Shown piece after piece: positions 1,761 through 53,545 of a DNA stretch of 64,000 bases. A model generated the notes under the pieces. The model made no database searches. It was not told the origin of the DNA and was given only the letters and a program-made list of their open reading frames with translations. The DNA is from Alphaproteobacteria bacterium. GTDB lineage: Bacteria > Pseudomonadota > Alphaproteobacteria > Rs-D84. Positions within the stretch are counted from its first letter, which is position 1; every line of letters starts with the position of its first letter. The position numbers were made by a program, and so were the translations under genes. The stretch covers positions 7,776-71,775 of the forward strand of contig JAGCOR010000026.1 of assembly GCA_017642585.1 (NCBI GenBank), given 5' to 3'.

Positions 1761-1781
1761 ATTGCGATTTTTATCGTATAA

Positions 1782-1810: not shown

Positions 1811-1811
1811 A

Positions 1812-15099: not shown

Positions 15100-17914
<2,815 letters not shown>

Positions 17915-17974: not shown

Positions 17975-18010
17975 AAAAAAATCCCCACACGACATGGGGA
18001 TTTTTATTTA
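17975..18010. terminator. bidirectional terminator
   Basis: AAAAAAATCCCCACACGACATGGGGATTTTTATTT. Confidence 0.55.
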
Positions 18011-18694: not shown

Positions 18695-18713
18695 TTGTTT
18701 TTACCGCATATAT

Positions 18714-28991: not shown

Positions 28992-29659
28992 ACAAAATAA
29001 AATCTTTTTTCTTGGGGATTTTATTATTGGCTATGACAATTGCCAGTATCGGGGTTGTCACATTGGTTTATCGTGCAAACGAACAAATATCTGTTAAATC
29101 TTATATTTTTCAAATGGGAAATTTTGCCAACGAACGTGTTGGTTTGTTACAAAATATAAATGATATATCTGTGATTGGTTTAAGAAACAGTTTGATTAAA
29201 AAATATGTTTCCGAATATTTCAAAGTTATTCCTGGGGAAAGTGATGTTACAAATCGCCCTGCTTTGCGTCAATTATCAAGTTCTGCGGCATACAGCCAAT
29301 GGGTATCAGGCGAAGCAAAAATAATTGAAGAAATGTCACGAAACAAAATGTTTAGAATGGTTTGGGTTTCAGACGAAGGTATAATACCTATGAATATGCC
29401 TGCTGACCATGATTATGCCCAAGCAATTATATCAGAAGATATATATTACGCAGTTCATTATGAAACAACAACTTGGCGGGAATCTAATTTTATGGCGGTT
29501 GAACCTGAAACAGAACATGGTGTATTATATATCGAAGCACGCTTTAAACCTGGCATCAACAAAAACCAAGATGTAAAAAAATATCTGGAAGCTGGGAAAG
29601 ATCCTGCGGGGTTATTTATGTTTAAAGTAACACACATAGGAAGTAAAGGAATAAAATGA
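28988..29659 (+). CDS. VirB8-like paralog (bitopic, NTF2-like periplasmic domain)
   Basis: Same topology and size as the upstream VirB8; weaker motif conservation (NSLIKKYVSEYFKV). Confidence 0.45.
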   Translation: MNKIKSFFLGILLLAMTIASIGVVTLVYRANEQISVKSYIFQMGNFANERVGLLQNINDISVIGLRNSLIKKYVSEYFKVIPGESDVTNRPALRQLSSSAAYSQWVSGEAKIIEEMSRNKMFRMVWVSDEGIIPMNMPADHDYAQAIISEDIYYAVHYETTTWRESNFMAVEPETEHGVLYIEARFKPGINKNQDVKKYLEAGKDPAGLFMFKVTHIGSKGIK

Positions 29660-30438
29660 TTAAAAAATTATTGATTTTATTATCGTTATGTTCCGCATTT
29701 ATTTGCACATCTGTATCATACGCAGAAGATGATATGGATTTTGATGAATTTGCAGTCGTAGACGACGAAGGCGAAGATATGAACACTGAAAGCGTTTCAC
29801 TAAACGAAGGCGATGGCCCTGTGGATGTGAAACAATTTGATATTGCGGGTATAATGTTGGGTATGGGATATGAAGAAATAAACAATCTGTTTTTTGAAAA
29901 TCCGTCATTGTATGCTCCACGCAGAAAAAACAGTGTGATTTATACGATAAACCAAGATTGGAAATATAATTTAGATTATGAATGTCGGCAAAACAATGTG
30001 TTCTTGCCTGAAAAATTGGAAAAATGTATTTATTCCCTGGCTCGCAATCGTGGTTTGCTGTATGTATCCGAAGTGCATTTGGTTCGTGATTTTACGGGCG
30101 AAACCATTGATGTATATTTTACCAGCAATGCAACAGATAACAAAGTATGGAAAGTCGTTTATAATAATGATGTAGACAAAGTGGATGGTCCATCGGCTGT
30201 GTATGCCAATCAACGCGAAAAAAAGATTTTGTCTTTCTGGCAAAGTGTTGTATCAAAATATGGTTCACCTAATTCTGACCAAGATAAATGGATTTCATCA
30301 GAAAACGCCTATGATCCAATGATGCGTGCATATTATGGACAATTGGTTTTGACAGATAATGGTTTAAATGCAACAGATTCTGCCAAAAACATCCAGGCTG
30401 CACGTGATAAATTCCAGGCAAAACCATATGCGTTCTAA
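29656..30438 (+). CDS. hypothetical secreted acidic protein
   Basis: Signal peptide MIKKLLILLSLCSAFICTSVSYA, acidic N-terminal region; no VirB9 motif recognised. Confidence 0.4.
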   Translation: MIKKLLILLSLCSAFICTSVSYAEDDMDFDEFAVVDDEGEDMNTESVSLNEGDGPVDVKQFDIAGIMLGMGYEEINNLFFENPSLYAPRRKNSVIYTINQDWKYNLDYECRQNNVFLPEKLEKCIYSLARNRGLLYVSEVHLVRDFTGETIDVYFTSNATDNKVWKVVYNNDVDKVDGPSAVYANQREKKILSFWQSVVSKYGSPNSDQDKWISSENAYDPMMRAYYGQLVLTDNGLNATDSAKNIQAARDKFQAKPYAF

Positions 30439-30781
30439 AAAAACATCTTATCAAATTGGTTTATTTTCTGAATTTTTAGCACGCTGGTATTTGCGCTTTC
30501 GTGGATATCATATTTTAAAAAGTCGATATGTTACTGGCAAAAACACTAATCGTGCAGAAATTGATATAATCGCAAAACATAAAAACACTATTGTTTTTAT
30601 CGAAGTAAAATCACGACAAAGTATTTCTGCGGCATGGGATGCGATTACTCCAACCCAATCGGCCAGATTACGTCGTGCCGCAGAAACTTTTCTTATAAAT
30701 TCACATTGGACAGGTGATGCAAGATTTGATGTGATAATTGTTTGCGGTCATAAAATATATTGGTCCAAAAACGCAATTTAA
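30428..30781 (+). CDS. YraN/UPF0102 family endonuclease-like protein
   Basis: MRSKKTSYQIGLFSEFLARWYL...GKNTNRAEIDIIAKHKNTIVFIEVKSR pattern typical of UPF0102; start at the internal ATG 30428. Confidence 0.65.
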   Translation: MRSKKTSYQIGLFSEFLARWYLRFRGYHILKSRYVTGKNTNRAEIDIIAKHKNTIVFIEVKSRQSISAAWDAITPTQSARLRRAAETFLINSHWTGDARFDVIIVCGHKIYWSKNAI

Positions 30782-31038
30782 TTTTTTATAACTGCACTTT
30801 TTATCAATGTGACATCTTCTTTGATACCGTCTATTTTTAATTGTAATTGTCCTATACCCGATTCAAGAATCGTGGTTCTGTTTTCTAATGATGTTATTCG
30901 CTGGTCTTGGCGTTCTAATTCGTTAAGTGAAGAATCTTGACGTGCAACCCAATAAATTGCTCCTGTGATAACAGCAATTAAAAACCAACCATCACGAATA
31001 ATCTCTAAAAAATTACTTATTTTCTGTTGTTTTTGCAT
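30778..31038 (-). CDS. small membrane-anchored coiled-coil protein (phage module, function unknown)
   Basis: One TM helix (WFLIAVITGAIYWVA) then a coiled coil; last gene of the phage-like operon. Confidence 0.35.
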   Translation of the reverse strand: MQKQQKISNFLEIIRDGWFLIAVITGAIYWVARQDSSLNELERQDQRITSLENRTTILESGIGQLQLKIDGIKEDVTLIKSAVIKN

Positions 31039-31040
31039 AT

Positions 31041-31241
31041 TTATGTTGGGTTATTCCCTTTGTTTATTAAATTTTCTATGTAATGAACCAATGCACTTTG
31101 CGCTGCCCACCAACGCAAATCATTGTCAGTTATGTTTTGCCCCACCGTTCGTTCAATGGTCAAAGAACGCAGATGTTTTAAAACACATTGCCCATCAATG
31201 CTGGCAAACGTTCTGGCGTATTGTTTTTCCAATTCAGACAT
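31041..31241 (-). CDS. hypothetical small protein (phage module)
   Basis: 66 aa ORF tightly packed between the portal gene and the next gene. Confidence 0.3.
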   Translation of the reverse strand: MSELEKQYARTFASIDGQCVLKHLRSLTIERTVGQNITDNDLRWWAAQSALVHYIENLINKGNNPT

Positions 31242-31257
31242 AACTATTCCTTCGGTC

Positions 31258-32481
31258 TTATATTAACATTTCTTCGTGTGCCATTTGTGCAATCGGGGCA
31301 ACATATTTTAATTCAGCATCAGAATGCAAAGATATTTGTTCTATCAATCCGCGTCTGGATAATATTTGCAATCCACGTTCACACATAGGCTTTATAAATT
31401 CGTGTAACAGGCGACCATATGTAGCACCTAAAATTCTAACCATATCTGAATTGCGTGCCAATATTTCAGTGGCGGTCATTTCTTTGTCTGATAACAACCC
31501 CAACCTGTCCGCCAATAAAGTGTGTCTGATTCTGTCGCGTAAATCGCGTAATACAATTTGCGAAACATCAAAATCAGCACCACTGGATAATGGGGTTAAA
31601 CCTGAACTGCCCACAGCTTTTGGAATAATTGCCCCCGGTGTTAAATTTATATTGGACAGATTTATAACACCATCATCATCCGCCTGCCATATACCGCTGA
31701 CCGCGATAGTCGCATTTTTTAAAACTAATTCCACAACTTTGTTGGCTGTTTTGATATCTGGCAACGCGCGCAATACTGGTCCACGACCATATGTTTCACC
31801 ACTGACCAAAGACCAACGGAAAATTATATATGGGTTGGTTTCAAATGTTCCACGTGAAACAATATTGTTTTCAAAATCGCCACCTACATCCAACCACGCA
31901 GTAAAATCATTTCCATCTAAACATTGAACCAATTTAATTGGTGTGTCTGGGTTGTTTTTTATAGTTTCCTGTAATTGTTTTGGAAAAACAAAATGCGGAT
32001 ATTTTTCAACAATTTCATTTGCAGGCATAGATGTCGTATGAAATACCATTCCCGGCAACAAAGCGATATTTGTCATAGGAATCGCAGTGAATGAAAATGC
32101 AGAATCTGCACCGATTGGATTTTCTGCCATAAACAAACAAGCAGTTCCCAACACAACCAAATCAATATAGCATTGATGAATTGTCGTATAAAAATTTGAA
32201 TCATTTAAATGTGCACGAAAAACAGATGTTGCATGTTCTGCATCTGGGGATAAATCACTTTCTTTGATAAAATTCACCCACAAAGATTCAGGTGGGGTCA
32301 ACAAAGAATACATAGAAGCAGCCAAATTATCCACTGCATCTGCCGCAGTCGCGTCAAATAAAGTTGCTGATTCTGTATCGTCCATTGGAATTGTGTATCG
32401 CATTGCTGTTTTCCAACGATTTAACCATATTTCGCGTTCATTTAATGCGCGTTTATATAATTGCATAAGATTTTTTTGCAT
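31258..32481 (-). CDS. T7 gp8-like head-to-tail connector (portal) protein
   Basis: RWKTAMRYTIPM...NLAASMYSLLTPPESLW and GETYGRGP align by eye with T7 gp8 (CAQYTIPSL...NLASKLMLALFPMQTW, GESYGRS, as recalled); 407 aa. Confidence 0.7.
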   Translation of the reverse strand: MQKNLMQLYKRALNEREIWLNRWKTAMRYTIPMDDTESATLFDATAADAVDNLAASMYSLLTPPESLWVNFIKESDLSPDAEHATSVFRAHLNDSNFYTTIHQCYIDLVVLGTACLFMAENPIGADSAFSFTAIPMTNIALLPGMVFHTTSMPANEIVEKYPHFVFPKQLQETIKNNPDTPIKLVQCLDGNDFTAWLDVGGDFENNIVSRGTFETNPYIIFRWSLVSGETYGRGPVLRALPDIKTANKVVELVLKNATIAVSGIWQADDDGVINLSNINLTPGAIIPKAVGSSGLTPLSSGADFDVSQIVLRDLRDRIRHTLLADRLGLLSDKEMTATEILARNSDMVRILGATYGRLLHEFIKPMCERGLQILSRRGLIEQISLHSDAELKYVAPIAQMAHEEMLI

Positions 32482-32498
32482 TTAATTTCCTTTTGTTT

Positions 32499-33347
32499 TT
32501 ATATTTTGAAATCTGTGTTTGCATGTATCAGTTTGTTGCCAAACGTCACAGGTCTGATTGTGCCAGGATTCATCATCAAAGCCCCTGCAACCGCATCCAA
32601 ACCGTCATCATGTTCTGTGGAACCAATCGGTGTCCAAGCCAACATTTCTGACAACAACATTGTTTGTTTAATTTTGTTGTGCATAAATAACCTGCCCGTG
32701 TTTAACACAGGTTCTATGGCATTTAAAATTCTGGTTTCTTTCTTGGTGTGATTTGCAATTTGAACTATGTTTATTTGCAGATTATGTTTATCGGCAACAC
32801 GTCGCATTATTTCAGGCAACGCATTACCCAGTCCGTTTATTTCTATCCCCACACGATATATTTTATGTTTTTGCATAAAATCTATAATTTTGTCGCATTG
32901 GGTAGACAAGGGATGTAAATCATCATCGTCTACAACCATATACATAATGTCATGAACAAAAACGGTTTTGTTTTTATCATCCCTGTACACTAATACACAT
33001 ACACTGCCATCTGCCCTGTTGTATCCAGATGACGGATCCCAATACATTGAAACCCCAGTTATACAATGTTGCCCGATTCGACATAATTTTGTATCGAAAT
33101 CATCATCATAAAACTGTAAAGCCCCTGGATCCAAATAAACACGTTCTTCGGGGACATATTCCAACATCATTTGGGCTGAAAAATGTCTGGGGCCGACAAT
33201 TCTTTCCAGTTCATGTATTTTTTCGATTGGAAACATTTCTGGCCATGCTGAATTTCCAGCACTGTCAACAATAGGTATCTTTAATTGTTTATAGCCACTT
33301 AAAAAATGTATTGAATTATTAAAATTTTCGTTTAATCTAAAAGACAT
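32499..33347 (-). CDS. large terminase subunit, C-terminal nuclease fragment (T7 gp19-like)
   Basis: SAWPEMFP, GPRHFSAQMMLEYVP, MYWDPSSGYNRADGSVCVLVY and HDDGLDAVAGAL match recalled T7 gp19 IWPALYP, GKAGFTLQFMLNPNL, VIDPSGRGKDETGYAV and HDDRLDALALGI; possible own start MSFRL at 33347 with a GGAG Shine-Dalgarno (track ORF extends to 33527). Confidence 0.75.
   Translation of the reverse strand: MSFRLNENFNNSIHFLSGYKQLKIPIVDSAGNSAWPEMFPIEKIHELERIVGPRHFSAQMMLEYVPEERVYLDPGALQFYDDDFDTKLCRIGQHCITGVSMYWDPSSGYNRADGSVCVLVYRDDKNKTVFVHDIMYMVVDDDDLHPLSTQCDKIIDFMQKHKIYRVGIEINGLGNALPEIMRRVADKHNLQINIVQIANHTKKETRILNAIEPVLNTGRLFMHNKIKQTMLLSEMLAWTPIGSTEHDDGLDAVAGALMMNPGTIRPVTFGNKLIHANTDFKI
33270..33282. repeat. 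left copy of a 12/13-bp direct repeat AATAG(G)TATCTTT flanking the cassette inside the terminase gene
   Basis: Near-identical copy at 36659-36670; both lie at the homologous break point of the terminase coding sequence. Confidence 0.4.
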
Positions 33348-34896
33348 GAACTTTACTCCAAAAACATTACCAATGAACCTGGAAGCAGAACAAGCAGTTC
33401 TGGCTGCCGTTTTTACCAGCAGTCGTGCACTGGAATTGATATCTGATTTCTTGTTGCCGGAACATTTTTCACACCCTGCGCACCAAGAAATATACAGATA
33501 TGCCATGCGTGTATTTGCAACTGGCAAGATTGTTGATGTAATTTCTGCAAAAAACTATTTAGAACAACAGGGCGCATTGGAAAGTGTTGGTGGACCTGAT
33601 TATTTGACTAAATTAGCATCTGCGGGTGCAACGGTTGTAAATGTTGAACATTATGCCCGTATAGTTTTTGATAATGCCCGCCGTCGTGATTTAATCAATA
33701 TTGGTCAATCTATTGTTGATAACGCATATCAAGAAGATTTGGATGTAACCGTTGATAACCAGGTTGAAACTGCTGAACAGAAATTGTTTAATTTGGCATC
33801 TACTGGTCAATCTGAACAAAATATGGTATCTTTGGCCCAGGCATTAAAAGGTGCTTTGAAAGAAGCAGAATATGCCTATAAAGCCGAAGGCAAATTGTCA
33901 GGTTTAACCACAGGTTTGGATGAACTGGATAAATCTATCAGTGGTTTGCACCATTCCGATTTAATTATTATAGCTGGTCGTCCAGGTATGGGTAAAACCA
34001 CATTGGCTATGAATATTGCGTTTAATGCGGCCAATGCTATATACAACAAACGCGCAAATGATAAATACCAAGGCGCTGTTATATTCTTCAGTTTGGAAAT
34101 GTCCAACGAACAATTGGCGGCACGTGTTTTGTCATCTCAATCAAAAATACCTGCATCCAGAATTCGTGACGGTCATTTAACCGACGAAGATTTTATGACG
34201 ATGTCACAATATTCAGACGCCCTGTCAAAATTACCATTGGTTATTGATGATTCTGCTGATGTGTCTGTACCTATGATAAAAACCCGTGCACGCAGAATTG
34301 CCCGTAAATTCGGCGGGGTTGCATTAATTGTTATCGACTATTTACAGTTGATGAAATTGCCAGGCGGCAAAAGCAACGAAAACCGTGTGCAAGAATTGTC
34401 TGAAATCACCCGCAGTTTGAAAATCTTAGCAAAAGATTTGGATGTTCCTGTGATTACCCTGTCACAGTTATCACGTAGTGTTGAACAACGTGATGATAAA
34501 CGCCCGGTATTGTCAGATTTGCGTGATTCTGGTTCTATTGAACAGGATGCGGATATCGTTATGTTCACTTTCCGTGAAGAATATTATCTGGACGGACACG
34601 CACCAAGCAATAAATTATCCAGTAACGCATCTGAAAATTCTATGCAACATTACCACAATCGTCTTGAACAATCCAGAAACAAGGCGGATGTTATCATTGC
34701 TAAAAACCGTCATGGTAAACCAGAAACTGTGCATTTAAGCTTCTTTGGCGAATATTTCTTGTTCGATAATTTGGCACAATTTAATATGCAACCTGCCCCC
34801 CAGGATATGAACGAACAACCTGTATTTGCGCCAACACCATCACCTGACGAACAAGCGGATTCATCTGTCGGTGATGCACCTGACGACATGCTTTAA
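33346..34896 (+). CDS. dnaB: replicative DNA helicase (DnaB family) with a C-terminal acidic/Pro-rich tail
   Basis: N-terminal LEAEQAVLAAVF..., Walker A GRPGMGKTTLA, Walker B IVIDYLQLM, SRSVEQRDDKRPVLSDLRDSGSIEQDAD; embedded in phage DNA on the strand opposite the structural genes. Confidence 0.85.
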   Translation: MNFTPKTLPMNLEAEQAVLAAVFTSSRALELISDFLLPEHFSHPAHQEIYRYAMRVFATGKIVDVISAKNYLEQQGALESVGGPDYLTKLASAGATVVNVEHYARIVFDNARRRDLINIGQSIVDNAYQEDLDVTVDNQVETAEQKLFNLASTGQSEQNMVSLAQALKGALKEAEYAYKAEGKLSGLTTGLDELDKSISGLHHSDLIIIAGRPGMGKTTLAMNIAFNAANAIYNKRANDKYQGAVIFFSLEMSNEQLAARVLSSQSKIPASRIRDGHLTDEDFMTMSQYSDALSKLPLVIDDSADVSVPMIKTRARRIARKFGGVALIVIDYLQLMKLPGGKSNENRVQELSEITRSLKILAKDLDVPVITLSQLSRSVEQRDDKRPVLSDLRDSGSIEQDADIVMFTFREEYYLDGHAPSNKLSSNASENSMQHYHNRLEQSRNKADVIIAKNRHGKPETVHLSFFGEYFLFDNLAQFNMQPAPQDMNEQPVFAPTPSPDEQADSSVGDAPDDML

Positions 34897-34964
34897 ATTT
34901 ATTTCTTGCCAAACTTATATTTTTTGACTATTATTTTGTCAACACATCTTCAAGGAGGTTTAAT

Positions 34965-35972
34965 ATGGCACAAGAAGAAATCATATTTCCTAATAACATA
35001 CGAAACATACGTGCTGCCAAGGGTATGAAAATGACCGAACTGGCCAGACGTGCCAATTTATCTTTGTCTGCTGTTTCCAAGATTGAAAAAGGCGTCAGAC
35101 GATTAAACCAAAAACAATTATTGAATGTGTGCAGCATATTGGGTTGCAAATTATCTGATATATTTATTCACGAATCAGATACTGTTGCAGATCAATGGCA
35201 AAACGAAATTAAACGCCGTTTGACTGACAATGAAAAAAGCGGTTTGAAAGTTTTCGGTTCTGGTTTGCGTAAAATCCGCCAACGTGCAGAAAAAACTATC
35301 GCAGAAACCGCGAAGGCTGCAAAAATGACATTGTCTGTTTATCATAAAATCGAAGTTGGTCAACGCGAAATTTATGAAAACGAAATTGAAGTTTTGGCAA
35401 AAACTTTTGGTTATACCACCGAACAATTATTTGATGAAATCGCAAATCTGTACAAGGCTGGCGAATTAACAAAACAAATCAACAAAGTTAAAGAACGCGT
35501 AAAATCTGTTTTGGAACCGGGTAATCCTGTATCTGGTTTGGACATCCAAGACGGTTTATATGGCGCACAATTATATGACAATGCCAGAAAAAAATTGGTT
35601 CCTGTGTTTGGAAAACCAAATGGCAAAGAAATTTCTTTGAAAAAATCAGACGAAAATATGATTGTCGCACCAAGTACATTGGAAGGTTTGGTCAGTGTTT
35701 ATGCTGTCGTTCCAAATGCAAAACGTTTGGGTGGTTTTATCCCAGAAACTTCTTATGTATTTGTTGATGCTGATTCAACACCAGAAGTTGGTGATTTGGC
35801 AATGTTCATTGATGCAGATTTTTCAAAAATGACATCTGATGATGTCGCATCTGCACAAATTGCCGTTGTGCGCCAGGATACACATGGTAAAAAATATGGT
35901 CATGTGTCCAATCCAGACGACAAAATCAATTATAAAACTATGCACAAAGTTATTATGATTGTAATGAAATAA
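34965..35972 (+). CDS. XRE-family regulator with two HTH domains and a degenerate CI/LexA-like C-terminal domain
   Basis: Two HTH_3-like segments (MKMTELARRANLSLSAVSKIEKG; KTIAETAKAAKMTLSVYHKIEVG); the C-terminal beta-rich domain lacks the S24 Ser nucleophile. Confidence 0.6.
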   Translation: MAQEEIIFPNNIRNIRAAKGMKMTELARRANLSLSAVSKIEKGVRRLNQKQLLNVCSILGCKLSDIFIHESDTVADQWQNEIKRRLTDNEKSGLKVFGSGLRKIRQRAEKTIAETAKAAKMTLSVYHKIEVGQREIYENEIEVLAKTFGYTTEQLFDEIANLYKAGELTKQINKVKERVKSVLEPGNPVSGLDIQDGLYGAQLYDNARKKLVPVFGKPNGKEISLKKSDENMIVAPSTLEGLVSVYAVVPNAKRLGGFIPETSYVFVDADSTPEVGDLAMFIDADFSKMTSDDVASAQIAVVRQDTHGKKYGHVSNPDDKINYKTMHKVIMIVMK

Positions 35973-35997
35973 CAATGTCAATTTGTAGGGGGGGCAT

Positions 35998-36663
35998 ATG
36001 CAACAACAAACCGCACATACGATTGCACAGCGTTTATTAAACCTTTATCGCCAAGCACATGTTATTAATGGTGGTTGGATGGCTGTTAACCAGGTTTTAT
36101 TGAACGAATCAAACGATCCCCGTGTCATAGAAGAACTTGAAAAATTGCCTACAGGAAAAAGGCTTGCTATGCATATCAGCAATTTAAAGTCTGGCAAAAC
36201 CCCTATGAACACCATTGATAAAGATTTATTGCCATACGGCGGTTTAATCATGGGTCAAGATACAATTATAACTTTAACGCCCGATGAATTAAAAGAGTTA
36301 CAAACCGCACTGGCATCTTTTGAACCAACCACCGAAGGATTAAACAAGATAAAAAAATTATCATGTGTTAAAAAATTCGGTAACGACTGGTTATACAGCA
36401 TCAAATCGGCATTAAACGACCACCCAGAAATAGCATCAAAATGGGCTGATGTTGTTCGTACAGAACGTGCTTATACTATGTGGAACAGTGCGCGCCAATT
36501 GATATCCGAAGATTTAACAGAACGTGACCGTGCCAGAATCCAGGTTGACATGCCAGATTTTGAAACATATTTACCTATGTTTGGCGAACCAGGCAAAGAA
36601 GTGTTGGCAAAACTGCGTACATTTATGTCTTCGGTTGCACCTGCTGTCAAATCTGATAAATAG
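35998..36663 (+). CDS. hypothetical protein (possible helicase-loader or accessory protein, speculative)
   Basis: 221 aa ORF, last gene of the cassette; its stop overlaps the terminase N-fragment stop. Confidence 0.35.
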   Translation: MQQQTAHTIAQRLLNLYRQAHVINGGWMAVNQVLLNESNDPRVIEELEKLPTGKRLAMHISNLKSGKTPMNTIDKDLLPYGGLIMGQDTIITLTPDELKELQTALASFEPTTEGLNKIKKLSCVKKFGNDWLYSIKSALNDHPEIASKWADVVRTERAYTMWNSARQLISEDLTERDRARIQVDMPDFETYLPMFGEPGKEVLAKLRTFMSSVAPAVKSDK

Positions 36664-37285
36664 TATCTTTGGTGTGTGGTGTCCCTATAAAAATCATTGT
36701 TCCGCGCGGGGATAAAATAAAATCTAATTCCCGTAATCTTTCACGAAGATTATTTCTTTTTTGCAAAGTGTTGCATGTATTTGGGACTTCTACGTCATCG
36801 CATATAATTAAATCAGATCTCATACCTGTTATATTTCCAGAAATTCCCTGACATATAACCGAAGGTTCCCTGATTCCTATAGGGCGTTTAATAGTAATTT
36901 TATGTGTTCCCCACTCTTTTTTGACATCAGGCAAAATATCACTGCACCACGGATGGTTTTCCAAAATATTTTTTACATGTGAAACCATACGCGATGACAA
37001 TCCAGATTCTGCTGACAATATCAATATTCTGGTTTCTGGTCGATAATATAATACACACGCTGCGAAAATCCCAACAACAGTTGATTTTCCAGAATGCCTG
37101 AACGCTGTCAATAATCCACGTCGCGGTTCATTATTAAAAACATCCACTAAAAATTCCAGTATCTGTTTATGGTGTTTCGGCGTTTCAAAACCCAAAATTT
37201 TATTCCAAGCATTTAAGAAATCAAAGGCTTCCGTAATCGTCAGATTGTTCATTGTCTGCTGTTTCTGTAACAGAACCATAATCAT
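36647..37285 (-). CDS. large terminase subunit, N-terminal ATPase fragment (T7 gp19-like)
   Basis: LTAFRHSGKSTVVGIFAACVLYYRPETRILILSAE, GISGNITGMRSDLIICDDVEVP and MIFIGTPHTKDTIY match recalled T7 gp19 [47 protein letters not shown] and VIYLGTPQTEMTLY; ends 3 codons after the conserved GTPxT motif. Confidence 0.8.
   Translation of the reverse strand: MIMVLLQKQQTMNNLTITEAFDFLNAWNKILGFETPKHHKQILEFLVDVFNNEPRRGLLTAFRHSGKSTVVGIFAACVLYYRPETRILILSAESGLSSRMVSHVKNILENHPWCSDILPDVKKEWGTHKITIKRPIGIREPSVICQGISGNITGMRSDLIICDDVEVPNTCNTLQKRNNLRERLRELDFILSPRGTMIFIGTPHTKDTIYQI
36659..36670. repeat. right copy of the direct repeat AATAGTATCTTT
   Basis: See 33270..33282. Confidence 0.4.
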
Positions 37286-37769
37286 TTATTAAATTTGGTA
37301 ATGCCTGGTCCAGAACATTAAGCAAATTATTATACAGCCCCAATACAGAACCTCCTGATAATTTGTCTTCTATTAACCCCAGCAAATAATTTATTTGATA
37401 CAATACATTGTTGTGTGTGTTTGCCCATTGACTTAAATCTATATTTATACTTTGAATATCATGCAACGCAGCGATTAAAAAATTAAAATCAGAATTCAAA
37501 TCTTCTGGGTCTATCTTTGCAGTCGGTTGATAATCGATTACTCTGGATAATGATATTTGCCGGAAAATATCTATTTGCGTTCCGTTTGCTGGTGCAGTTG
37601 CAAATACCACCAAACCACCATTAAAATCATTATCAGGGTTCACATCATATTGCGAATCATCTAAAACAACATTGTCTATCGCGACTTTAATATCTGCATT
37701 TTGAAAAAAAGGGAAATTAAAAACAAATTCCGTATCATTGCCATTTCCCGTATATGATATTTTATACAT
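37221..37769 (-). CDS. tail fiber N-terminal (tail-attachment) domain protein, T7 gp17-N-like stub
   Basis: MYKISYTGNGNDTEFVFNFPFF resembles T7 gp17 N-terminus VLTYQLDGSNRDFNIPFEY (recalled); only 182 aa, no receptor-binding region. Confidence 0.55.
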   Translation of the reverse strand: MYKISYTGNGNDTEFVFNFPFFQNADIKVAIDNVVLDDSQYDVNPDNDFNGGLVVFATAPANGTQIDIFRQISLSRVIDYQPTAKIDPEDLNSDFNFLIAALHDIQSINIDLSQWANTHNNVLYQINYLLGLIEDKLSGGSVLGLYNNLLNVLDQALPNLINDYGSVTETADNEQSDDYGSL

Positions 37770-37778
37770 GAATGCCCC

Positions 37779-38126
37779 CTATCCTGCTATTTTATCTATC
37801 TGCGACAGCCACTTTTTCAATAAATTAGGTTTTGTTGTTTTTATCTTTTTTAAATTTTCTATGCTTGTTTTATTTTTTTCATCATATGGTTGTGCAGTTT
37901 CATCACGCAATCTTTTTAATACCGCGTTTTCAGACAAACCATCACCAGCATTGCCAGACGCTCCGTATTTTGCGCGTTGTCCCGCCAATACTTTTTTTAT
38001 TAAATTATTTTTCGCTGTTTCATTTTCAGCCATTTGTTCCAATATTTTTTGACGTTGGTTGCCTGCTTTCTTCTTAGATTCTTGATAATCCAGAATTTGC
38101 GTTACGTCAGATACCAATTGTCCCAT
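37779..38126 (-). CDS. hypothetical lysine-rich protein (phage module)
   Basis: 115 aa ORF between tail tubular B and the fiber stub. Confidence 0.35.
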   Translation of the reverse strand: MGQLVSDVTQILDYQESKKKAGNQRQKILEQMAENETAKNNLIKKVLAGQRAKYGASGNAGDGLSENAVLKRLRDETAQPYDEKNKTSIENLKKIKTTKPNLLKKWLSQIDKIAG

Positions 38127-38144
38127 AAAAAACTCCTTTTGTTT

Positions 38145-39857
38145 TTATATTGAATACCAACCCTCTGTAGTCACAGACAATATTGTCGCGCTTAATTGTT
38201 CACTGCTGGACAAAGTCCACAAAGGTTGAATTGTATCGGCCTGTATACCCAGCAAATTTAATGACAAATCCCCGCTGTAACCAAGGTTATCGTTTGAATA
38301 AACAACATTTGGTATTTCAATTCTGTAATCATTTGCAAATAATGTTTTTGTGTTTATCACACGCACAGATATTTTTCTGGTTCGTATTTTCTTTGGACAA
38401 TGTCCATTTACAACCATAGGCACAGCCGATATTTTATATGAAAAACCATATTGGGTTGCGTCTTTCAAACAAGATGCATCAAATTTTTCAAGATAATGAT
38501 TGCCTTTTCTTTTTACAATAACATAAGTTGAATCATCTAATACACAAACATATTTGAATTCGCCGTCTGTTTTATATGTTCCCCACGCAGAAATATCTGT
38601 ATTTGGATATTTATGTAATACGGCCATATATCCGCTTTGCATAACAACAAACAATTGATGTGTGTTTTGGTTATAAGAAACACTGACCGGATTTTGCATA
38701 AGATGTTTTGCATACAAACATAAATCTGTAGCGTTGTAATTTTCACCCAATGCATCTAAATCTAATTCACGAATATCTTTGCCTGATTCAGAAATGAAAA
38801 CTGTGCTACCTTCTATTTGCTGTGGAGGCAAATATCTTGTCGCAATACTGCCGACAGATGTATGTTGTTTAATATTGACATTTGATGGTGTTAACGGGGA
38901 ATTTGAAATCGACCATTCGCCCACAGATGTCAAAATCTGCAACGAATCACTGCTGACAATTGTACAAATTTGATGGTGTTGTGCAGATAATAAAGCTGCA
39001 TAAATTGCTTCATCATCTAAACCTGTGCCAGAATCAAAATTATGAAAATCAGAAACTTTGGACATCCATATACAATTCGGCAAAGCATGTGTTCCGCCAA
39101 AAACTAATCTGTTTTGATGGAAAGATACACATGATGGCCATCCGCGTCTGTTGTTAAACACAGATTCATACCAATCGTATATTGGACCTTGGGCTAATGT
39201 AAAATTACCATTTGTATAAACAGTAACAGCCGTAGCACTTTGAACGCTGGCAACAACCCATTGTCTGTTGTCCACATATAATCTTTCACCCACAGCATTT
39301 TCAGGCCAAAAATCTGCATTTGTTGTAAATGTAGCGTAATTGGTATCTATGTCGCTGCTGGACATTGTTATAGTGATATTTTTCGAATCTTCAAAACGCG
39401 TAAACGGTATATTTACACTGGCATCTGAATTGGAAGAAAAATTAAAATCAGTAAAACCAAAACCACTGGCTGTTTTTGTAAATATCACAGGTTTATAATC
39501 TGGATGAACAAAAAATATAGAATTAAATCTTTGTGCATATTGTAATTTTGCCAAATCAGCACGTTTCCACGGCGCAATCATTGTCGTTATTTTGGTATCA
39601 TTACAATATATATCCATAGAAATATTGTATATAACCAACAAATATTTTTCTGATTCTGTAATTGGAAACGGCACAATTATTGCATCTTGGTATGTATTAC
39701 CTATGCTTTTTAACCCACTGCGTCTGGTTAAACCGCCTGATTTTAATACATCTGTATTTTCCAACACAGATAACCCGTTTGCATTATTCAATGCGTAAAA
39801 TTCAGAAGACACTTCCCCACAAGCAAATGAATTTTGTGTTTTAATAAAATTACCCAT
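38145..39857 (-). CDS. tail tubular protein B (T7 gp12-like), shortened
   Basis: FHQNRLVFGG...SKVSDFHNF resembles the gp12 FFFRNRLGFLSG...AKYFNFY segment (recalled); sits downstream of a gp11-like gene; 570 aa. Confidence 0.55.
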   Translation of the reverse strand: MGNFIKTQNSFACGEVSSEFYALNNANGLSVLENTDVLKSGGLTRRSGLKSIGNTYQDAIIVPFPITESEKYLLVIYNISMDIYCNDTKITTMIAPWKRADLAKLQYAQRFNSIFFVHPDYKPVIFTKTASGFGFTDFNFSSNSDASVNIPFTRFEDSKNITITMSSSDIDTNYATFTTNADFWPENAVGERLYVDNRQWVVASVQSATAVTVYTNGNFTLAQGPIYDWYESVFNNRRGWPSCVSFHQNRLVFGGTHALPNCIWMSKVSDFHNFDSGTGLDDEAIYAALLSAQHHQICTIVSSDSLQILTSVGEWSISNSPLTPSNVNIKQHTSVGSIATRYLPPQQIEGSTVFISESGKDIRELDLDALGENYNATDLCLYAKHLMQNPVSVSYNQNTHQLFVVMQSGYMAVLHKYPNTDISAWGTYKTDGEFKYVCVLDDSTYVIVKRKGNHYLEKFDASCLKDATQYGFSYKISAVPMVVNGHCPKKIRTRKISVRVINTKTLFANDYRIEIPNVVYSNDNLGYSGDLSLNLLGIQADTIQPLWTLSSSEQLSATILSVTTEGWYSI

Positions 39858-39875
39858 GAAATCACCCCTGAATTA

Positions 39876-40394
39876 TTAAAATCTTGAATTTATCAAAGAA
39901 AAATTATCTATGTTTGATTGATTTAAAATCGTGCTGTCTATGAATTTTGCAGATTGATATTCTGATTCATACAAAATATTCATCATTTTAAAGATATTCA
40001 TATCTCCAATCAAAGGAACACAAAATTCCACAGCCAATTTAGATGCAACCAATGATGCAAAATAGCCCGGAAAATTTTCTGGTTCTGTTTTTACAATCGC
40101 AATAATTTCTATTTTTTCGGCTGCGGCAATTATCTTGTTTCCAACGATTTGACCAGGATGTTTAATTATGCGTAATACATTGGTGGGTATAATAAAATCA
40201 CCATTTGAATCTTTGGTTAATTCTATGTTTTGTAATGCAAAATGCCATGGAAATGTCGACAACAAAGTATCAACAACCGAATCAAATAAACTTCTGGCCA
40301 ATTGAGCAGGTGCAGAATCTTCACGCAAAGATTGAATTGGCTTTTCGCCTAACTTTAACAAAGCCATTGAACATAAATCTATTTTTGTAAACAT
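39876..40394 (-). CDS. tail tubular protein A (T7 gp11-like)
   Basis: IDLCSMALLKLGEKPIQSLRED..AQLARSLFDSVVDTLLSTFPWHF versus recalled T7 gp11 [41 protein letters not shown]; 172 aa. Confidence 0.6.
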   Translation of the reverse strand: MFTKIDLCSMALLKLGEKPIQSLREDSAPAQLARSLFDSVVDTLLSTFPWHFALQNIELTKDSNGDFIIPTNVLRIIKHPGQIVGNKIIAAAEKIEIIAIVKTEPENFPGYFASLVASKLAVEFCVPLIGDMNIFKMMNILYESEYQSAKFIDSTILNQSNIDNFSLINSRF

Positions 40395-40407
40395 ATTTTA
40401 TTCCTAT

Positions 40408-40440
40408 GTAAAAAGGGGCCGTATAAAACGGCCCGGTTAT
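40408..40440 (-). terminator. strong rho-independent terminator downstream of the capsid gene region (T-phi-like position)
   Basis: CCGGGCCGT TTTAT ACGGCCCC TTTTT on the minus strand. Confidence 0.5.
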
Positions 40441-40467
40441 AAAATAATTAACAATTTGATTTGTTTT

Positions 40468-40698
40468 TTAAGACAAAGCAGCAACTGTTATAGCATCAGC
40501 TGTAACACTTAATACTTTGATTGATGTTCCATTTGAACCATTAATTAAAATGATATCGCCTGTATTCATCAAAGATTTTACACTGGCAAAATATCCAGAT
40601 GCAGTTATTGTCGCCAATGTCGCATTTTCTTTATAATGCCACAATGTAAAACCATTTGCGTATGCAATCACAGACAAATTTTTATTTTGAAATGCCAT
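40468..40698 (-). CDS. hypothetical small protein downstream of capsid
   Basis: 76 aa ORF with no motif, tightly packed. Confidence 0.3.
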   Translation of the reverse strand: MAFQNKNLSVIAYANGFTLWHYKENATLATITASGYFASVKSLMNTGDIILINGSNGTSIKVLSVTADAITVAALS

Positions 40699-40734
40699 TT
40701 GATTTTCCTTTTGTTTTATTTAAGTTATGAATGT

Positions 40735-41562
40735 TTAGGCTGCATCATCATCACATTTAATACGAACGATACCTTCTGCATCAATCAACACAGCGCCTTG
40801 GGACATACTGTTGCTGATGAAATGCGCAGCACGTTCGCCATGCCATGTAATATCAGTTTTAACTTCTTGACCACAGGCATGACCAATGCTGGATGCATGA
40901 TAAATGAAACAATCACGATCATCTGTGTTTGCCAAAGGCAAAGAATTGCACAGAATCCAATTGATACCCAACCATCTTCTTGATTCACAACCATCAACCA
41001 AAGGTGTTGAACCACCGACATAATCAGCAGATACAAATTCATTCATACCCATCAATTCATTCCATTGATGAACACCAACGACTGCATATCTGCGACCGTC
41101 ATCTGGAACGTCATTTTCGTTTAATTTTTCAACAGCACTCATAATCAATGCTTTTGTTAAACCTGTTGAATAATCGCCAACATATTGGGTTGCATTGTTC
41201 ATCGCAGCGATGATTAATTCATCTGTTTTACGACCCAATGCATATGCACCGGCTGATGCAACAACACGACGTTCATCAACATTGGTTTTCAATTCATCCA
41301 AAGCATCAATCCAATCGCCTGCGTAATAATCTTGCAAAGTGCATTCCACAGGTGTGTGATTCAAATTCATCACTGGAACAATACCATGACGTGATTTAGT
41401 ACTGGCAATTCCTTTGCCAACTTTTTGGAAAGTTGTTGAAGTTCCAACAACGCCAGATTTACTGCGAATTGTGGAACGCAATTTTGTGCCCATTTGCTGA
41501 TAAGCCAAATGAACATCTGCTTCAAATTGTTTTATAAACACTTGATCTACAGATAAAGACAT
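40735..41562 (-). CDS. major capsid protein (T7 gp10-like)
   Basis: VFIKQFEADVHLAYQQMGTKLRSTIRSKSGVVGTSTTF versus recalled T7 gp10 LFLKVFGGEVLTAFARTSVTTSRHMVRSISSGKSAQF; start MSLSV at 41562 with an AAGGA Shine-Dalgarno (track ORF extends to 41655). Confidence 0.65.
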   Translation of the reverse strand: MSLSVDQVFIKQFEADVHLAYQQMGTKLRSTIRSKSGVVGTSTTFQKVGKGIASTKSRHGIVPVMNLNHTPVECTLQDYYAGDWIDALDELKTNVDERRVVASAGAYALGRKTDELIIAAMNNATQYVGDYSTGLTKALIMSAVEKLNENDVPDDGRRYAVVGVHQWNELMGMNEFVSADYVGGSTPLVDGCESRRWLGINWILCNSLPLANTDDRDCFIYHASSIGHACGQEVKTDITWHGERAAHFISNSMSQGAVLIDAEGIVRIKCDDDAA

Positions 41563-41793
41563 AAAAAATCCTTTTTGTTTTTCTTGTAAAAAATTACGCC
41601 AAAACGGCAACATATTTTGAAAAATGGTTATACGAAAAATCGCGCCATAAAACAAAATTCAAAAGTCAGGGTCCACAAAATGGATTATCCAATAAAAGAT
41701 TCAGTCAGACACAAAATCTGACTGAAAATTTTATCAAAAAACCCCAAAACACTTATGCTTTGGGGTTAAAAATGATACATAATTAATGTATTA

Positions 41794-42114
41794 TTATTTT
41801 TTCTTTGCAACTTTTTTTGCAGGTTTTTTTGCAGCAACTTTTTTTGCAGGAGCTTTTTTAGCAACTGGTTTTTTTGCTACAACTTTTTTTGCAGGAGCTT
41901 TTTTAGCAACTGGTTTTTTTGCAACAACTTTTTTTGCAGGTGCTTTTTTAGCAACTGGTTTTTTTGCTACAACTTTTTTTGCAGGTGCTTTTTTAGCAAC
42001 TGGTTTTTTAACTGCAACTTTTTTTGCAGGTGCTTTTTTTGCTGCTGGTTTTGCAGCTACTTTTTTAGCAGCTGGTTTTGCGCAAGCACATTTTTTCTTA
42101 GAACCAAAGAACAT
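41794..42114 (-). CDS. lysine/alanine-rich histone H1-like repeat protein
   Basis: 106 aa, about 45% Lys, with repeating KKAPAKKVVAKKPVA units; strong AAGGAGA Shine-Dalgarno 6 nt before the ATG. Confidence 0.6.
   Translation of the reverse strand: MFFGSKKKCACAKPAAKKVAAKPAAKKAPAKKVAVKKPVAKKAPAKKVVAKKPVAKKAPAKKVVAKKPVAKKAPAKKVVAKKPVAKKAPAKKVAAKKPAKKVAKKK
41812..42070. repeat. 45-bp tandem repeat, ~4.5 copies (coding; encodes the 15-aa KA repeat)
   Basis: Unit GCAGGAGCTTTTTTAGCAACTGGTTTTTTTGCTACAACTTTTTTT repeated at 41846, 41891, 41936 and 41981 with 1-2 substitutions per copy. Confidence 0.75.
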
Positions 42115-42218
42115 AATTCTCTCCTTTTAAGTTTTTGGATAGAACAAAATTATTTTGTTCATACTTTTATTTTATATGAATTAAATAAAATAGTAAAGAA
42201 TAAAAGTTAAAAATTATG

Positions 42219-42875
42219 TTATGAATATAATTTTTTAAATCCGTTTTCTATTTTTCTTACATACTCCGGATCTTGATCACGCCAATATTTTGGATTCTTC
42301 ATCATGTTGCGTAATTCATCATCAGTTAAATTTTCATCACCACTTTTGTTTGTAAAAACTTCTGGTTCCATTGATTGCATCATCTTGTATATGCCTTGAA
42401 TTCCCTGGGGTGTAGAGCATAGTTCATCAAACGCAGATGCAGGTAAAAACTTTTCACCAAATGCATTTATCTCTTTCAATGCATCATTCATTTTTTGTGT
42501 TGAACCAAAAAAATTTTTTAATTCATTTATTGCATTTGTTTCATTTTGCATTTCAAATAAATTTTTTATCGCAGGTTGTAAAAAATCTTCTGCAATTTGA
42601 TAAATTGTTTCAACTTGTTTTGATGTTAAACCAATTTCATGAAATTTTTCACGCACCGATTCGTCATCAAATAAACTGTTTGTTGGATATTCTGATGCGT
42701 TATCCGGTACACCAATTGCGCGATTAAATTTTTGTTTAGTTGAATCATCACTATCCGCAGATGGTACAGATATCATCGTTCCCATCTTTTTTTCTAATTC
42801 ACAATACGATTTAATCAACGCAGATGTATTTAATTCACCATTTTCATTTAGAAATTTTTCTGGAACCTGTTCCAT
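42219..42875 (-). CDS. capsid scaffolding protein (T7 gp9-like)
   Basis: Acidic; C-terminal ELRNMMKNPKYWRDQDPEYVRKIENG versus recalled T7 gp9 SEMIKAMSDPRYRTDANYRRQVEQKV; position upstream of capsid. Confidence 0.55.
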   Translation of the reverse strand: MEQVPEKFLNENGELNTSALIKSYCELEKKMGTMISVPSADSDDSTKQKFNRAIGVPDNASEYPTNSLFDDESVREKFHEIGLTSKQVETIYQIAEDFLQPAIKNLFEMQNETNAINELKNFFGSTQKMNDALKEINAFGEKFLPASAFDELCSTPQGIQGIYKMMQSMEPEVFTNKSGDENLTDDELRNMMKNPKYWRDQDPEYVRKIENGFKKLYS

Positions 42876-43065
42876 TGTTTTTTCCTTTTGTTGAAGATTC
42901 TTGTTTCAAAAAATAGATACCACCCAACATAAAAATTGTTTGCAACATTGAAAAGATATCTTGTTCCCCAATTAAATAAGCACCTATGGCAGAAATTATT
43001 CCAACACTTGAAACGACATAGGTTTTGCGCCCTTTCAAATATCCGCCATTTATAAATTTGTTCAT
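42844..43065 (-). CDS. small membrane protein (hypothetical)
   Basis: 73 aa ORF with one predicted TM helix; overlaps the scaffold start by 32 nt. Confidence 0.3.
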   Translation of the reverse strand: MNKFINGGYLKGRKTYVVSSVGIISAIGAYLIGEQDIFSMLQTIFMLGGIYFLKQESSTKGKNNGTGSRKISK

Positions 43066-43085
43066 AAAAATTCCTTTTGTGTAAT

Positions 43086-43532
43086 TTATAAATAAAATAA
43101 GATATCATCTATCTCTGCAATATAACCACGTGACATGGCCCATTGTGGCATAACATCTGTGTGATGAAATTTAGTAGCACCAAAAACCAAATCTCGCAAA
43201 GCGCCATTCATCATTTTTTGAACAACGCGTAAACACATTTGAAATTTTTTATCTTTTGCATTTACATTTAATAAATGATTTCGTTTTGAATTATCATTTA
43301 ACACTTCAAAAATATTTGCATCATTCGCAATATCTTCAAAAGATTTATCATATTTTATATGTATGTTATAAATCATAGAAGAAAAAGCTTCGACCAAATG
43401 CAGAGATTGTGCCAAAGTTTCTGCGTAAACAATGCGCGATAGTTTATATAATACAATTTTTGTATTATCCGGATTTTCAATCAAAGTTAATTGCATGTTA
43501 AGACCTGTTTGGGTTATAAAAAAAACGCACAA
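43086..43532 (-). CDS. hypothetical protein (first gene of the phage-like operon)
   Basis: 148 aa ORF with no motif. Confidence 0.35.
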   Translation of the reverse strand: MCVFFITQTGLNMQLTLIENPDNTKIVLYKLSRIVYAETLAQSLHLVEAFSSMIYNIHIKYDKSFEDIANDANIFEVLNDNSKRNHLLNVNAKDKKFQMCLRVVQKMMNGALRDLVFGATKFHHTDVMPQWAMSRGYIAEIDDILFYL

Positions 43533-43645
43533 AAAATGTGCGTCATGGAACCAGAATAAAAAAAATCCGCATCTAAATCGCGGACAGAATCTTTATTCTT
43601 GATGTTCATCATTATATCACAAATCGACTATAAAGTCAAGACCAT

Positions 43646-44326
43646 TTACAAACTGATTTCATCACTGTATGTCAAAATATATTTAGTATCATCGCGTAAT
43701 ACCAACGCACCATCATCATTTAAACCTATCAATTCCATTGGTTTCCCGTGATATGTAATGATTTTATTTATTCGTGTTGCCAATTCCATCCAACGATTTT
43801 TCACAACGCAAAAATCTGCATCATACCATTTATCAATTTTCTTCATCAATACACCAAACACATCTTCCACAGAAGTTTCCACATAATCATTTACTTTTGT
43901 AGTTTGATATTCTTTTACTGTTGGACATGTTTTCACATTTATACCAATTCCTATGATTACAAAATTTTGTGCGTATTCGATTAAAATGCCACTGATTTTT
44001 TTATCATCGACCAAAATATCATTAGGCCATTTGATTTGGGGTTTAATTCCAAAACTGATTAAAGTTTCTGCCACAGCAACAGCCATAGTATAAGATAACT
44101 TTGGATTACGTTCATAAATTTTGAAAATAAAACTGGCATACAGATTCCCAGTGTGCGAAACCCAACTACGTCTGTATCTGCCCCGCCCCATTGTTTGTGC
44201 AGTAGCAACTATCACCGTTTTATTCGTGGCTGTGCCATCTGCAATTAATTGCAACGCATAATTTTGCGTACTGGGTATTTTATCCAAAGAAATCAGTTTA
44301 TATGCGTCCAATTTTATATTTCCCAT
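43646..44326 (-). CDS. birA: biotin--[acetyl-CoA-carboxylase] ligase
   Basis: BPL_LplA_LipB catalytic domain motifs (QTMGRGRYRRSW, GIGINV); 226 aa with no DNA-binding N-domain. Confidence 0.85.
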   Translation of the reverse strand: MGNIKLDAYKLISLDKIPSTQNYALQLIADGTATNKTVIVATAQTMGRGRYRRSWVSHTGNLYASFIFKIYERNPKLSYTMAVAVAETLISFGIKPQIKWPNDILVDDKKISGILIEYAQNFVIIGIGINVKTCPTVKEYQTTKVNDYVETSVEDVFGVLMKKIDKWYDADFCVVKNRWMELATRINKIITYHGKPMELIGLNDDGALVLRDDTKYILTYSDEISL

Positions 44327-52799: not shown

Positions 52800-52823
52800 T
52801 TACATATAAACATTGGGTTTCAT

Positions 52824-53543: not shown

Positions 53544-53545
53544 TT

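Follow-up and report, generated by a model that had tools for sequence, protein, structure and literature searches.

A cluster of phage-type genes, positions 30778–43532 (~12.8 kb), lies in a 64,000-nucleotide stretch of contig JAGCOR010000026.1 (assembly GCA_017642585.1), the whole of which is called the window below. It comprises 15 minus-strand genes with three plus-strand genes inside and has housekeeping flanks, yraN at one end and birA at the other; it encodes T7-like virion and packaging proteins, with the large terminase in two pieces on either side of a replicative helicase gene, dnaB. Its boundaries had been drawn correctly in a first-pass annotation made from the sequence, although that annotation counted 13 co-directional minus-strand genes and supposed a Rickettsiales/Holosporales-like host, whereas the genome is that of a Candidatus Enterousia, a gut bacterium of the order Rs-D84 with a genome of ~0.9 Mb. 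Enterousia has been placed in that order, with genome sizes of ~0.75–1.0 Mb (PMC12306168). Genes were assigned by profile searches against PHROGs, Pfam and NCBIfam, and are given here in minus-strand order; the plus-strand block runs, from low to high coordinates, dnaB, a regulator with two helix-turn-helix (HTH) domains, and a gene for a protein of 221 amino acids (aa), u221.

43086–43532, minus strand: SleB-like cell-wall hydrolase, endolysin candidate (PF07486, 27.9 bits, cut-off 27; phrog_938 endolysin, E 2e-7)
42844–43065, minus strand: 73-aa protein with two hydrophobic segments, holin candidate (transmembrane call by eye from the translation)
42219–42875, minus strand: scaffolding protein, T7 gp9 family (PF05396, E 5.7e-9; phrog_3742)
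41794–42114, minus strand: Lys/Ala-rich histone H1/HC2-like protein (PF07382, E 2.8e-14; NF038053/NF038052 below cut-off)
40735–41562, minus strand: major capsid protein (PF19821, E 7.8e-73; phrog_3437, E 4.6e-72)
40468–40698, minus strand: small conserved post-capsid protein, u76 (phrog_18004, no assigned function)
39876–40394, minus strand: tail tubular protein A or adaptor, gp11-like (PF17212; phrog_394, E 1.3e-27)
38145–39857, minus strand: tail tubular protein B or nozzle, gp12-like (phrog_376, E 4.8e-83)
37779–38126, minus strand: conserved 115-aa protein following the nozzle, u115, positional analogue of gp13/14 (present in all 45 loci compared below)
37221–37769, minus strand: tail-fibre N-terminal (tail-attachment) domain only, 182 aa (PF03906; phrog_1640)
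36647–37285, minus strand: terminase N piece, terN, the ATPase core with Walker A, Walker B and motif III (NF033889 termin_lrg_T7, 215 bits)
35998–36663, plus strand: u221, all-helical protein with no assigned function, its stop overlapping that of terN by 17 nt
34965–35972, plus strand: XRE-family regulator with two HTH domains (PF01381 twice) and an uncharacterised C-terminal domain
33346–34896, plus strand: dnaB, cellular-type replicative DNA helicase (NF006606, 592 bits, cut-off 540; TIGR00665, 497 bits, cut-off 385)
32499–33347, minus strand: terminase C piece, terC, lid and RNase-H-like nuclease (PF22530; phrog_38 positions 483–707; NF033889 positions 333–500)
31258–32481, minus strand: portal, T7 gp8 family (PF12236, E 8.5e-80)
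31041–31241, minus strand: Bbp19-like small phage protein (PF25181, 27.3 bits)
30778–31038, minus strand: 86-aa protein with an N-terminal hydrophobic helix and a conserved coiled-coil, membrane or lysis-accessory candidate (by eye)

The large terminase, at first taken for one gp19-type gene, is thus encoded by terN and terC, which are separated by the 3.1-kb opposite-strand block. terN covers positions 4–189 of the 500 in NF033889 and 274–458 of phrog_38; joined to terC in silico, it forms one colinear segment against intact T7-like terminases (28% identity, E 1e-51, to that of Acinetobacter phage TPWB-05). The break falls just past motif III (GTPHT), at a place where the phage enzyme is variable and has some alignment gaps. 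Walker A (GKST), Walker B (CDDVE) and motif III were invariant in 38 terN orthologs, as were the acidic nuclease motifs WDPS, xExNG and HDDGLDA in 46 terC orthologs, and the retention of catalytic motifs in both pieces indicates that DNA packaging is under selection.

The pieces are tightly interlocked with the block between them. Besides the overlap of the terN and u221 stops, the ATG codons of terC and dnaB overlap within a single CATG, and the GGAG Shine–Dalgarno sequence of terC lies inside dnaB codons 2–5, a junction kept in ~65/72 loci (the remainder have a 14–17-nt spacer). At the start of both genes (~15 codons in terC, ~10 in dnaB) third-codon-position entropy drops steeply, as expected if the start signals of each gene lie in the coding sequence of the other. 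A search for repeats flanking the 3.1-kb insert gave chance-level short matches only, Rfam (E≤1, positions 30000–44500) yielded no intron and no other credible RNA family, and the translations of terN and terC carry no intein-like extension. Given the lack of an intron or intein signature, and a start and stop for each piece, two terminase polypeptides are expected. Herpesvirus UL15, the ATPase/nuclease terminase subunit, is likewise encoded in two blocks with opposite-strand genes between them, but there the exons are joined by splicing into one protein, whereas in Enterousia each piece has its own start and stop.

The interposed DnaB looks like the cell's own helicase, to judge from its family scores: as well as passing the cellular models, it misses the phage_DnaB model TIGR03600 (408 against a cut-off of 499). 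Comparison was made across 45 full-length loci, each from a different species and each with full 10-kb flanks (20-kb loci). dnaB was present in 45/45, with ratios of nonsynonymous to synonymous substitution (dN/dS) of 0.03–0.13, like those of housekeeping genes, and the XRE regulator was also in 45/45, at 66–84% identity. The C-terminal domain of the regulator showed no significant likeness to LexA/CI S24 domains (hhalign probability 2%), and u221 gave no informative fold match. dnaB lies inside the terminase gene in all Enterousia-type loci and also in two more distant ones, L091 (a 194-kb contig labelled Rickettsiales bacterium) and L103 (an IMG/VR fragment with a split terminase). In L091, which has the Enterousia arrangement including the HC2-like gene, terN, dnaB and terC all lie on one strand without the regulator or u221; in L103 the gap holds dnaB and an 834-aa open reading frame (ORF; 7367–9871, no Pfam match) that replaces the regulator and u221. 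As these two share dnaB but differ in the rest of the gap, the insertion of dnaB is ancient and the gap contents have changed since. A separate feature of L091 is an inserted gene that lies between terC and portal (17418–17873); its 151-aa product resembles type IV pilins in its N-terminal methylation motif (PF07963, scoring below cut-off).

The T7-like structural assignments made by eye were upheld by the family searches, with PF12236, PF05396, PF17212, PF03906 and NF033889 matched at curated cut-offs and PF22530 passing for terC. The capsid belongs to the PF19821 family, not that of T7 gp10, and is 42% identical to that of Pelagibacter phage EXVC031P Hodr; the large terminase (TerL) is 26–28% identical to those of T7-like phages. 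The scaffold was found in 45/45 loci (62–82% identity), and the HC2-like gene sits between scaffold and capsid in 45/45 loci and in L091, but is absent from sister lineages with an intact TerL. The position of u76 after the capsid is kept in Hodr and in all of the compact clusters described below; the homolog of tubular protein B in sister cluster L085 carries PF25675 (Phage_nozzle); u115, which has no Pfam or PDB profile match, has weak homologs after tubular protein B in L085, L088, L091 and L092; and the Bbp19-like gene follows portal in all relatives. The C-terminus of the portal is ~55 aa shorter than in relatives (alignment to the 501-aa L091 portal stops at residue 445). The fibre stub is present in just 19/45 loci, u115 abutting terN elsewhere, whereas fibres in related compact clusters measure 450–860 aa. 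Lysis candidates, of which the first-pass annotation saw none, are supplied by the hydrolase at 43086–43532 and the protein with two predicted transmembrane segments at 42844–43065. The hydrolase, whose likely start is the ATG at 43496, was in 45/45 loci (dN/dS 0.09–0.36) and its sister-lineage homologs also match PF07486; the 73-aa holin candidate was in 45/45, with homologs in L090 and L091. Mean column identity of the 86-aa protein was 77% in an alignment of 27 species.

The same annotation had weighed a very degraded prophage against a domesticated, GTA-like (gene transfer agent-like) packaging machine, and had proposed examining selection across related genomes. All genes were recovered as single full-length matches, with gene order and birA/yraN site unchanged, in 45/45 loci, the exception being the fibre stub, and no frameshift or stop was found in any of the 15 genes in the 45 species. 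Selection was purifying: pairwise dN/dS was 0.02–0.075 for capsid, 0.04–0.09 for portal, 0.03–0.11 for terN, 0.09–0.16 for terC and 0.07–0.22 for tubular protein B, and mostly 0.02–0.25 across the cluster, against 0.05–0.25 for birA and 0.04–0.09 for lpxI in the flanks, all approximate values since dS (0.5–2) is near saturation. Capsid identity between species was 82–95%, compared with 55–75% for birA, 50–78% for rumA and 65–90% for lpxI. Protein distances within the element followed those of the host flanks (r 0.98, rho 0.91, slope 0.96; 300 species pairs). The protein collection held 3911 relatives of the capsid, the best 120 of them 82–98% identical, and a close relative is encoded in 460 GTDB species genomes; named carriers are Candidatus Enterousia or Alphaproteobacteria metagenome-assembled genomes (MAGs) from rumen, horse, goat, deer and human gut, one of them a circular genome of 958,618 bp.

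Together, intactness, purifying selection and co-divergence with the host exclude simple decay and strongly disfavour a mobile prophage. The absence of many canonical T7 functions, the interrupted terminase gene and the truncated or lost fibre are what a functionless remnant would display, but one would not expect it to keep 15 genes intact in 45 species with dN/dS well below 1 and invariant catalytic motifs; moreover, the terminase interruption is conserved to the nucleotide, and with flanks only 50–78% identical the loci are not near-identical recent copies. We regard decay as the least probable of the explanations considered, with a negligible chance of being right, and the alternative of a domesticated packaging machine is supported as far as sequence comparison reaches. 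It is very probable that the cluster has been domesticated in one way or another and functions under selection. As a separate observation, dS in the capsid, scaffold and HC2-like genes (40735–42875) was 0.4–0.8, against 1.0–2.0 in neighbouring genes, and the capsid had the lowest third-position (synonymous-site) entropy, a pattern compatible with strong codon-usage selection, i.e. high expression.

The cluster is not confined to this genome. A sister gut lineage (capsid ~63% identical) has an equally compact cluster between host genes, with an intact TerL of 475–499 aa and the order putative small terminase (TerS), TerL, x, hydrolase, x, x, portal, Bbp19, scaffold, capsid, u76, tubular A, tubular B and a u115-like gene (x, other genes). 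Sister clusters are accompanied by a divergent repressor with HTH and S24 domains (CI/LexA-like). In two of them (L085 3482–4214, L092 5608–6749) two small genes are conserved between this repressor and the structural genes, one encoding 110/128 aa with a WFWFC motif and the other 146/181 aa; they may be early regulators, and the window has neither. Another cluster, in GCA_050175015.1, has in addition a 363-aa fibre, a lysozyme and a GTA_holin_3TM protein.

Further afield, IMG/VR holds many 11–14-kb ‘proviruses’ (GC content 0.29–0.75) without gp15/16-sized genes, in the order portal, Bbp19, scaffold, capsid, u76, tubular A, tubular B, (u115), fibre, TerL, hydrolase. By exact-sequence look-up, capsids of compact clusters are on chromosomes of cultured genera, and single 90%-identity clusters cover many species; carriers are Azospirillum (multispecies), Niveispirillum, Thalassospira, Roseomonas/Falsiroseomonas, Roseicella, Paracraurococcus, Dankookia, Belnapia and Magnetovibrio-type MAGs. 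The same capsid family includes true phages of ~34 kb with large genes after the nozzle. In a rough neighbour-joining capsid tree the split-terminase loci formed one clade, sister to a low-GC clade with intact terminases, and full-size phages nested among the compact clusters, a tree on which one reduction and several are not separable. Some public ‘phage’ or ‘provirus’ records are themselves fragments of chromosomal clusters, namely L082 (MT838907.1) and L093–L104 (IMG/VR uncultivated virus genomes); as several IMG/VR entries contain the cellular dnaB and regulator, virus databases are contaminated by this element.

This wider family offers what grounds there are for a mobile element, either a temperate mini-phage or a helper-dependent satellite: clusters of 11–14 kb with a CI-like repressor have a satellite-like size, IMG/VR tools label them proviruses, and full-size phages are nested among them in the tree. 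In Enterousia, however, the cluster occupies one chromosomal site in every species examined and has diverged with its flanks, it lacks an integrase, att-like repeats and a replication initiator, it encloses an essential-type dnaB, and its capsid is more conserved than housekeeping genes, so that mobility is very unlikely. Capsid-forming satellites of the cf-PICI type (phage-inducible chromosomal islands) have an integrase, a regulatory/replication module, their own capsid and packaging genes and helper tails, and are mobile; the Enterousia cluster differs in having neither integrase nor replication module, its own adaptor and nozzle, a fixed site and co-divergence with the host.

Equally slim is the chance that the cluster persists mainly through its embedded host genes (dnaB, regulator, H1-like gene), deletions being lethal and the phage genes serving as their transcriptional context. 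The position of dnaB inside the terminase gene in Enterousia-type loci, L091 and L103, and the synonymous constraint on the terC codons within which the dnaB promoter region lies, are in keeping with this idea. However, embedding guards against large deletions only, leaving selection at the amino-acid level on capsid, portal, nozzle and terminase unexplained, and sister lineages keep the same compact cluster without an embedded dnaB.

Searches for further phage functions covered the window and the 20-kb loci. No RNA polymerase, DNA polymerase or primase-helicase was found in the cluster, the window or the 10-kb flanks of the 45 loci, and no integrase, excisionase, phage replication initiator or att-like repeat in the cluster. 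Nor were there gp14–16-sized genes in the cluster or window, only the 115-aa gene following the nozzle, where true phage relatives have genes of ~160–310, 720–780 and 790–1270 aa; the absence of polymerases, integrase and gp14–16 recorded by the first-pass annotation therefore stands for cluster and window alike. The TerS-candidate family located upstream of TerL in sister clusters had no match in the window, and packaging is accordingly expected to be sequence-independent, as is characteristic of GTAs, and to take up mostly host DNA. The genes of the rest of the window included nothing further that was virus-like.

How the cluster might be controlled is suggested by a further set of features.

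43611–43639, minus strand: sigma-70-type promoter match with extended −10 (TTGACT-17-TATAAT with TG, 11/12 match), in the spacer between birA and the hydrolase gene
43524–43585, minus strand: two tandem terminator-like elements, hairpin plus T-run (43585–43565 and 43544–43524), between that promoter and the first gene
41700–41767, minus strand: two terminator-like hairpins between the HC2-like and capsid genes
40416–40434, minus strand: GC-rich hairpin plus T-run after capsid/u76, parallel to T7 T-phi
34906–34943, plus strand: promoter-like site of the regulator, with a TTGAC-N9-GTCAA palindrome over the −10 (palindrome in 62/72 loci)

The site upstream of the hydrolase gene is the best promoter match in the region and the candidate promoter of the structural operon; its −35 and TG/−10 positions were invariant in 45 aligned species. 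The two leader hairpins occurred at conserved positions in 62/69 species' leaders but with 36 and 50 distinct stem sequences, the leader being conserved in structure and not in sequence (hairpins were counted per sequence, as RNAalifold gave no consensus because loop indels misalign the stems). At lambda pR'/tR' a strong promoter is followed by terminators ahead of the late operon, which is controlled by antitermination. The Enterousia leader recalls this arrangement, an analogy to which a short RNA gene is the alternative reading. The same promoter/terminator leader was sought in L091 and not found. The ‘T-phi-like’ terminator noted earlier after the capsid proved to be the GC-rich hairpin and T-run at 40434–40416. 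The palindrome over the regulator's own −10 suggests that the XRE protein may regulate itself. A corresponding operator at the late promoter was considered and rejected, as TTGAC-N6-GTCAA was perfect in just 22/68 loci and is no commoner in the window than chance predicts. In L091, two copies of a 23-nt palindromic hairpin (ATCCCGGTG..CACCGGGAT) with TTGACA lie between dnaB and terC (16307–16373), and could be an operator or promoter for the terC–portal half in that lineage.

With T7-like phages and Hodr the cluster shares homologous portal, Bbp19-like protein, scaffold, capsid, u76, tubular proteins A and B and fibre N-terminal domain, but it lacks polymerases, gp14–16-sized genes, TerS and a full fibre, and its chromosomal site is fixed; Hodr has genes of 159, 783 and 1247 aa after tubular protein B where Enterousia does not. 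In the GTA of Rhodobacter capsulatus (RcGTA) lysis is a separate function, and non-specific packaging has been linked to altered or missing TerS function. The Enterousia cluster resembles it in being compact (~15 kb), chromosomally fixed, vertically inherited, under purifying selection and free of replication and integration genes. It differs in having T7-type proteins and a PF19821 capsid where RcGTA has an HK97-type capsid, prohead protease and siphovirus tail (no protease or tape-measure gene was found in the cluster with Pfam, PHROGs or NCBIfam), and in the two-piece terminase around dnaB. RcGTA-like head genes under purifying selection, with no tail genes and an unclear role, have been described in reduced endosymbionts (George et al. 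2022, PMC9254644). There too, reduced alphaproteobacterial genomes keep head and packaging genes under selection while tail parts are missing, but those are RcGTA homologs in Rickettsiales/Holosporaceae, whereas here T7-like genes in a gut Rs-D84 bacterium include a minimal tail (adaptor and nozzle) and a lysis cassette. In Faecalibacterium prausnitzii, FpGTA has been called the first podovirus-like GTA-like element, with experimental evidence of random DNA packaging (PMC12946183); it is, by description rather than sequence, another gut bacterial GTA-like element inferred to be podovirus-like, but its host is a Firmicute and it has two loci.

Set against the general definition of GTAs and viriforms (PMC9662315), the cluster is a caudovirus-derived structural cluster that co-evolves with the host genome under purifying selection, and the window and 20-kb loci contain no self-replication or integration functions, DnaB scoring as cellular. 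It looks like a new relative of the phage-derived, host-maintained particle systems, with the two-piece terminase interleaved with dnaB as its distinctive trait. On balance, gene content and conservation slightly favour a GTA-like system derived from a T7-like podovirus, maintained by the host and vertically inherited, which would make DNA-filled, short-tailed particles released by lysis. In such a system the strong promoter upstream of the hydrolase gene would fire, and the two tandem leader terminators would hold the operon off until read-through was permitted, whereupon hydrolase, holin, scaffold, H1-like basic protein, capsid, adaptor, nozzle and terN would be made. Beyond the dnaB block, expression of terC, portal and the two small proteins could start from a promoter inside the first part of dnaB or depend on transcripts that read through dnaB in antisense. 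The two terminase polypeptides would then assemble and fill the capsids, and packaging without a small terminase would be sequence-independent and so take up mostly host DNA.

Several points weigh against this GTA-like reading. Particle formation, the packaged DNA, induction and transfer are all deduced from genes, the activity of the two-piece terminase is a prediction, and no antiterminator or activator was identified. The approximate nature of the dN/dS values applies here too, and missing functions may be encoded elsewhere in the genome than the window and 20-kb loci. The fibre lacks a receptor-binding part, being reduced to an N-terminal stub in 19/45 loci and absent from the rest; without that part and without ejection proteins, DNA delivery is hard to explain. 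A non-transfer role, in which particles or capsids serve as a PBSX-like killer or defective phage, as a vehicle for interacting with the animal host or with a partner microbe, or in controlled DNA disposal or export, therefore stays a serious rival, though we think it distinctly less likely than not to hold. The missing fibre part and ejection core, the truncated portal C-terminus and the added basic H1-like protein would all suit it, and the same possibility has been raised for the RcGTA-like head genes of reduced endosymbionts (PMC9254644). However, all catalytic motifs are kept in both terminase pieces, adaptor and nozzle are conserved, and no sequence feature indicates a specific alternative role.

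Among the neighbouring genes, priA and miaA lie a few kb past the cluster (window 50562–54448), and in the distant contig L091 the pair miaA–priA (1718–4796) is found immediately upstream of the cluster, which suggests a common ancestral neighbourhood. An ORF at 49102–50097, ~5.5 kb from the cluster, appears by eye to encode a VirB11/type IV secretion-type ATPase (Walker A GATATGKTT). Two neighbouring paralogues of 228 and 359 aa at 18008–19793 are similar at their N-termini, the longer having a coiled-coil tail, and have no PHROG match. The products of three successive plus-strand genes between bamA and yraN (28296–30438) begin with signal-peptide-like segments and have no assigned family; conservation of these genes is weak, and in some species (L057, L080) they are located elsewhere.

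The first-pass annotation held that no such element had been described. This stood in so far as no description of a T7-like Enterousia cluster was found in the open-access literature searched, and the Enterousia genome paper makes no mention of phage genes (PMC12306168); but the element is part of a wide family of compact clusters rather than a peculiarity of one genome. More tentatively, as a possibility short of being probable, the family may be a second GTA-like lineage in Alphaproteobacteria, derived from a T7-like podovirus and extending from cultured Rhodospirillales-type bacteria (Azospirillum, Thalassospira, Acetobacteraceae genera) to Rs-D84; in Enterousia its terminase would work as two polypeptides, encoded on either side of the cell's replicative helicase gene in a head-to-head arrangement, and turning on particle production would be linked through transcription to dnaB expression and chromosome replication, probably in an antagonistic way.

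Known GTAs are, to our knowledge, few, and the alphaproteobacterial ones trace to one HK97/siphovirus-type ancestor. If the GTA-like reading is true, a podovirus-type system, independently domesticated and conserved in every Enterousia species examined, would add to the known routes from phage to host organelle, in ~0.9-Mb genomes of which the cluster takes up more than 1% of the DNA. The division of a bacterial packaging ATPase/nuclease into two genes with dnaB between them is in itself unusual, and can be approached experimentally. Particles with ~10 kb of DNA have been reported from Azospirillum, where they were suspected to be GTAs and attributed to RcGTA-like genes (PMC3899980). The presence of compact clusters in cultured Azospirillum and Thalassospira makes the idea testable in the laboratory, and may bear on those particles.

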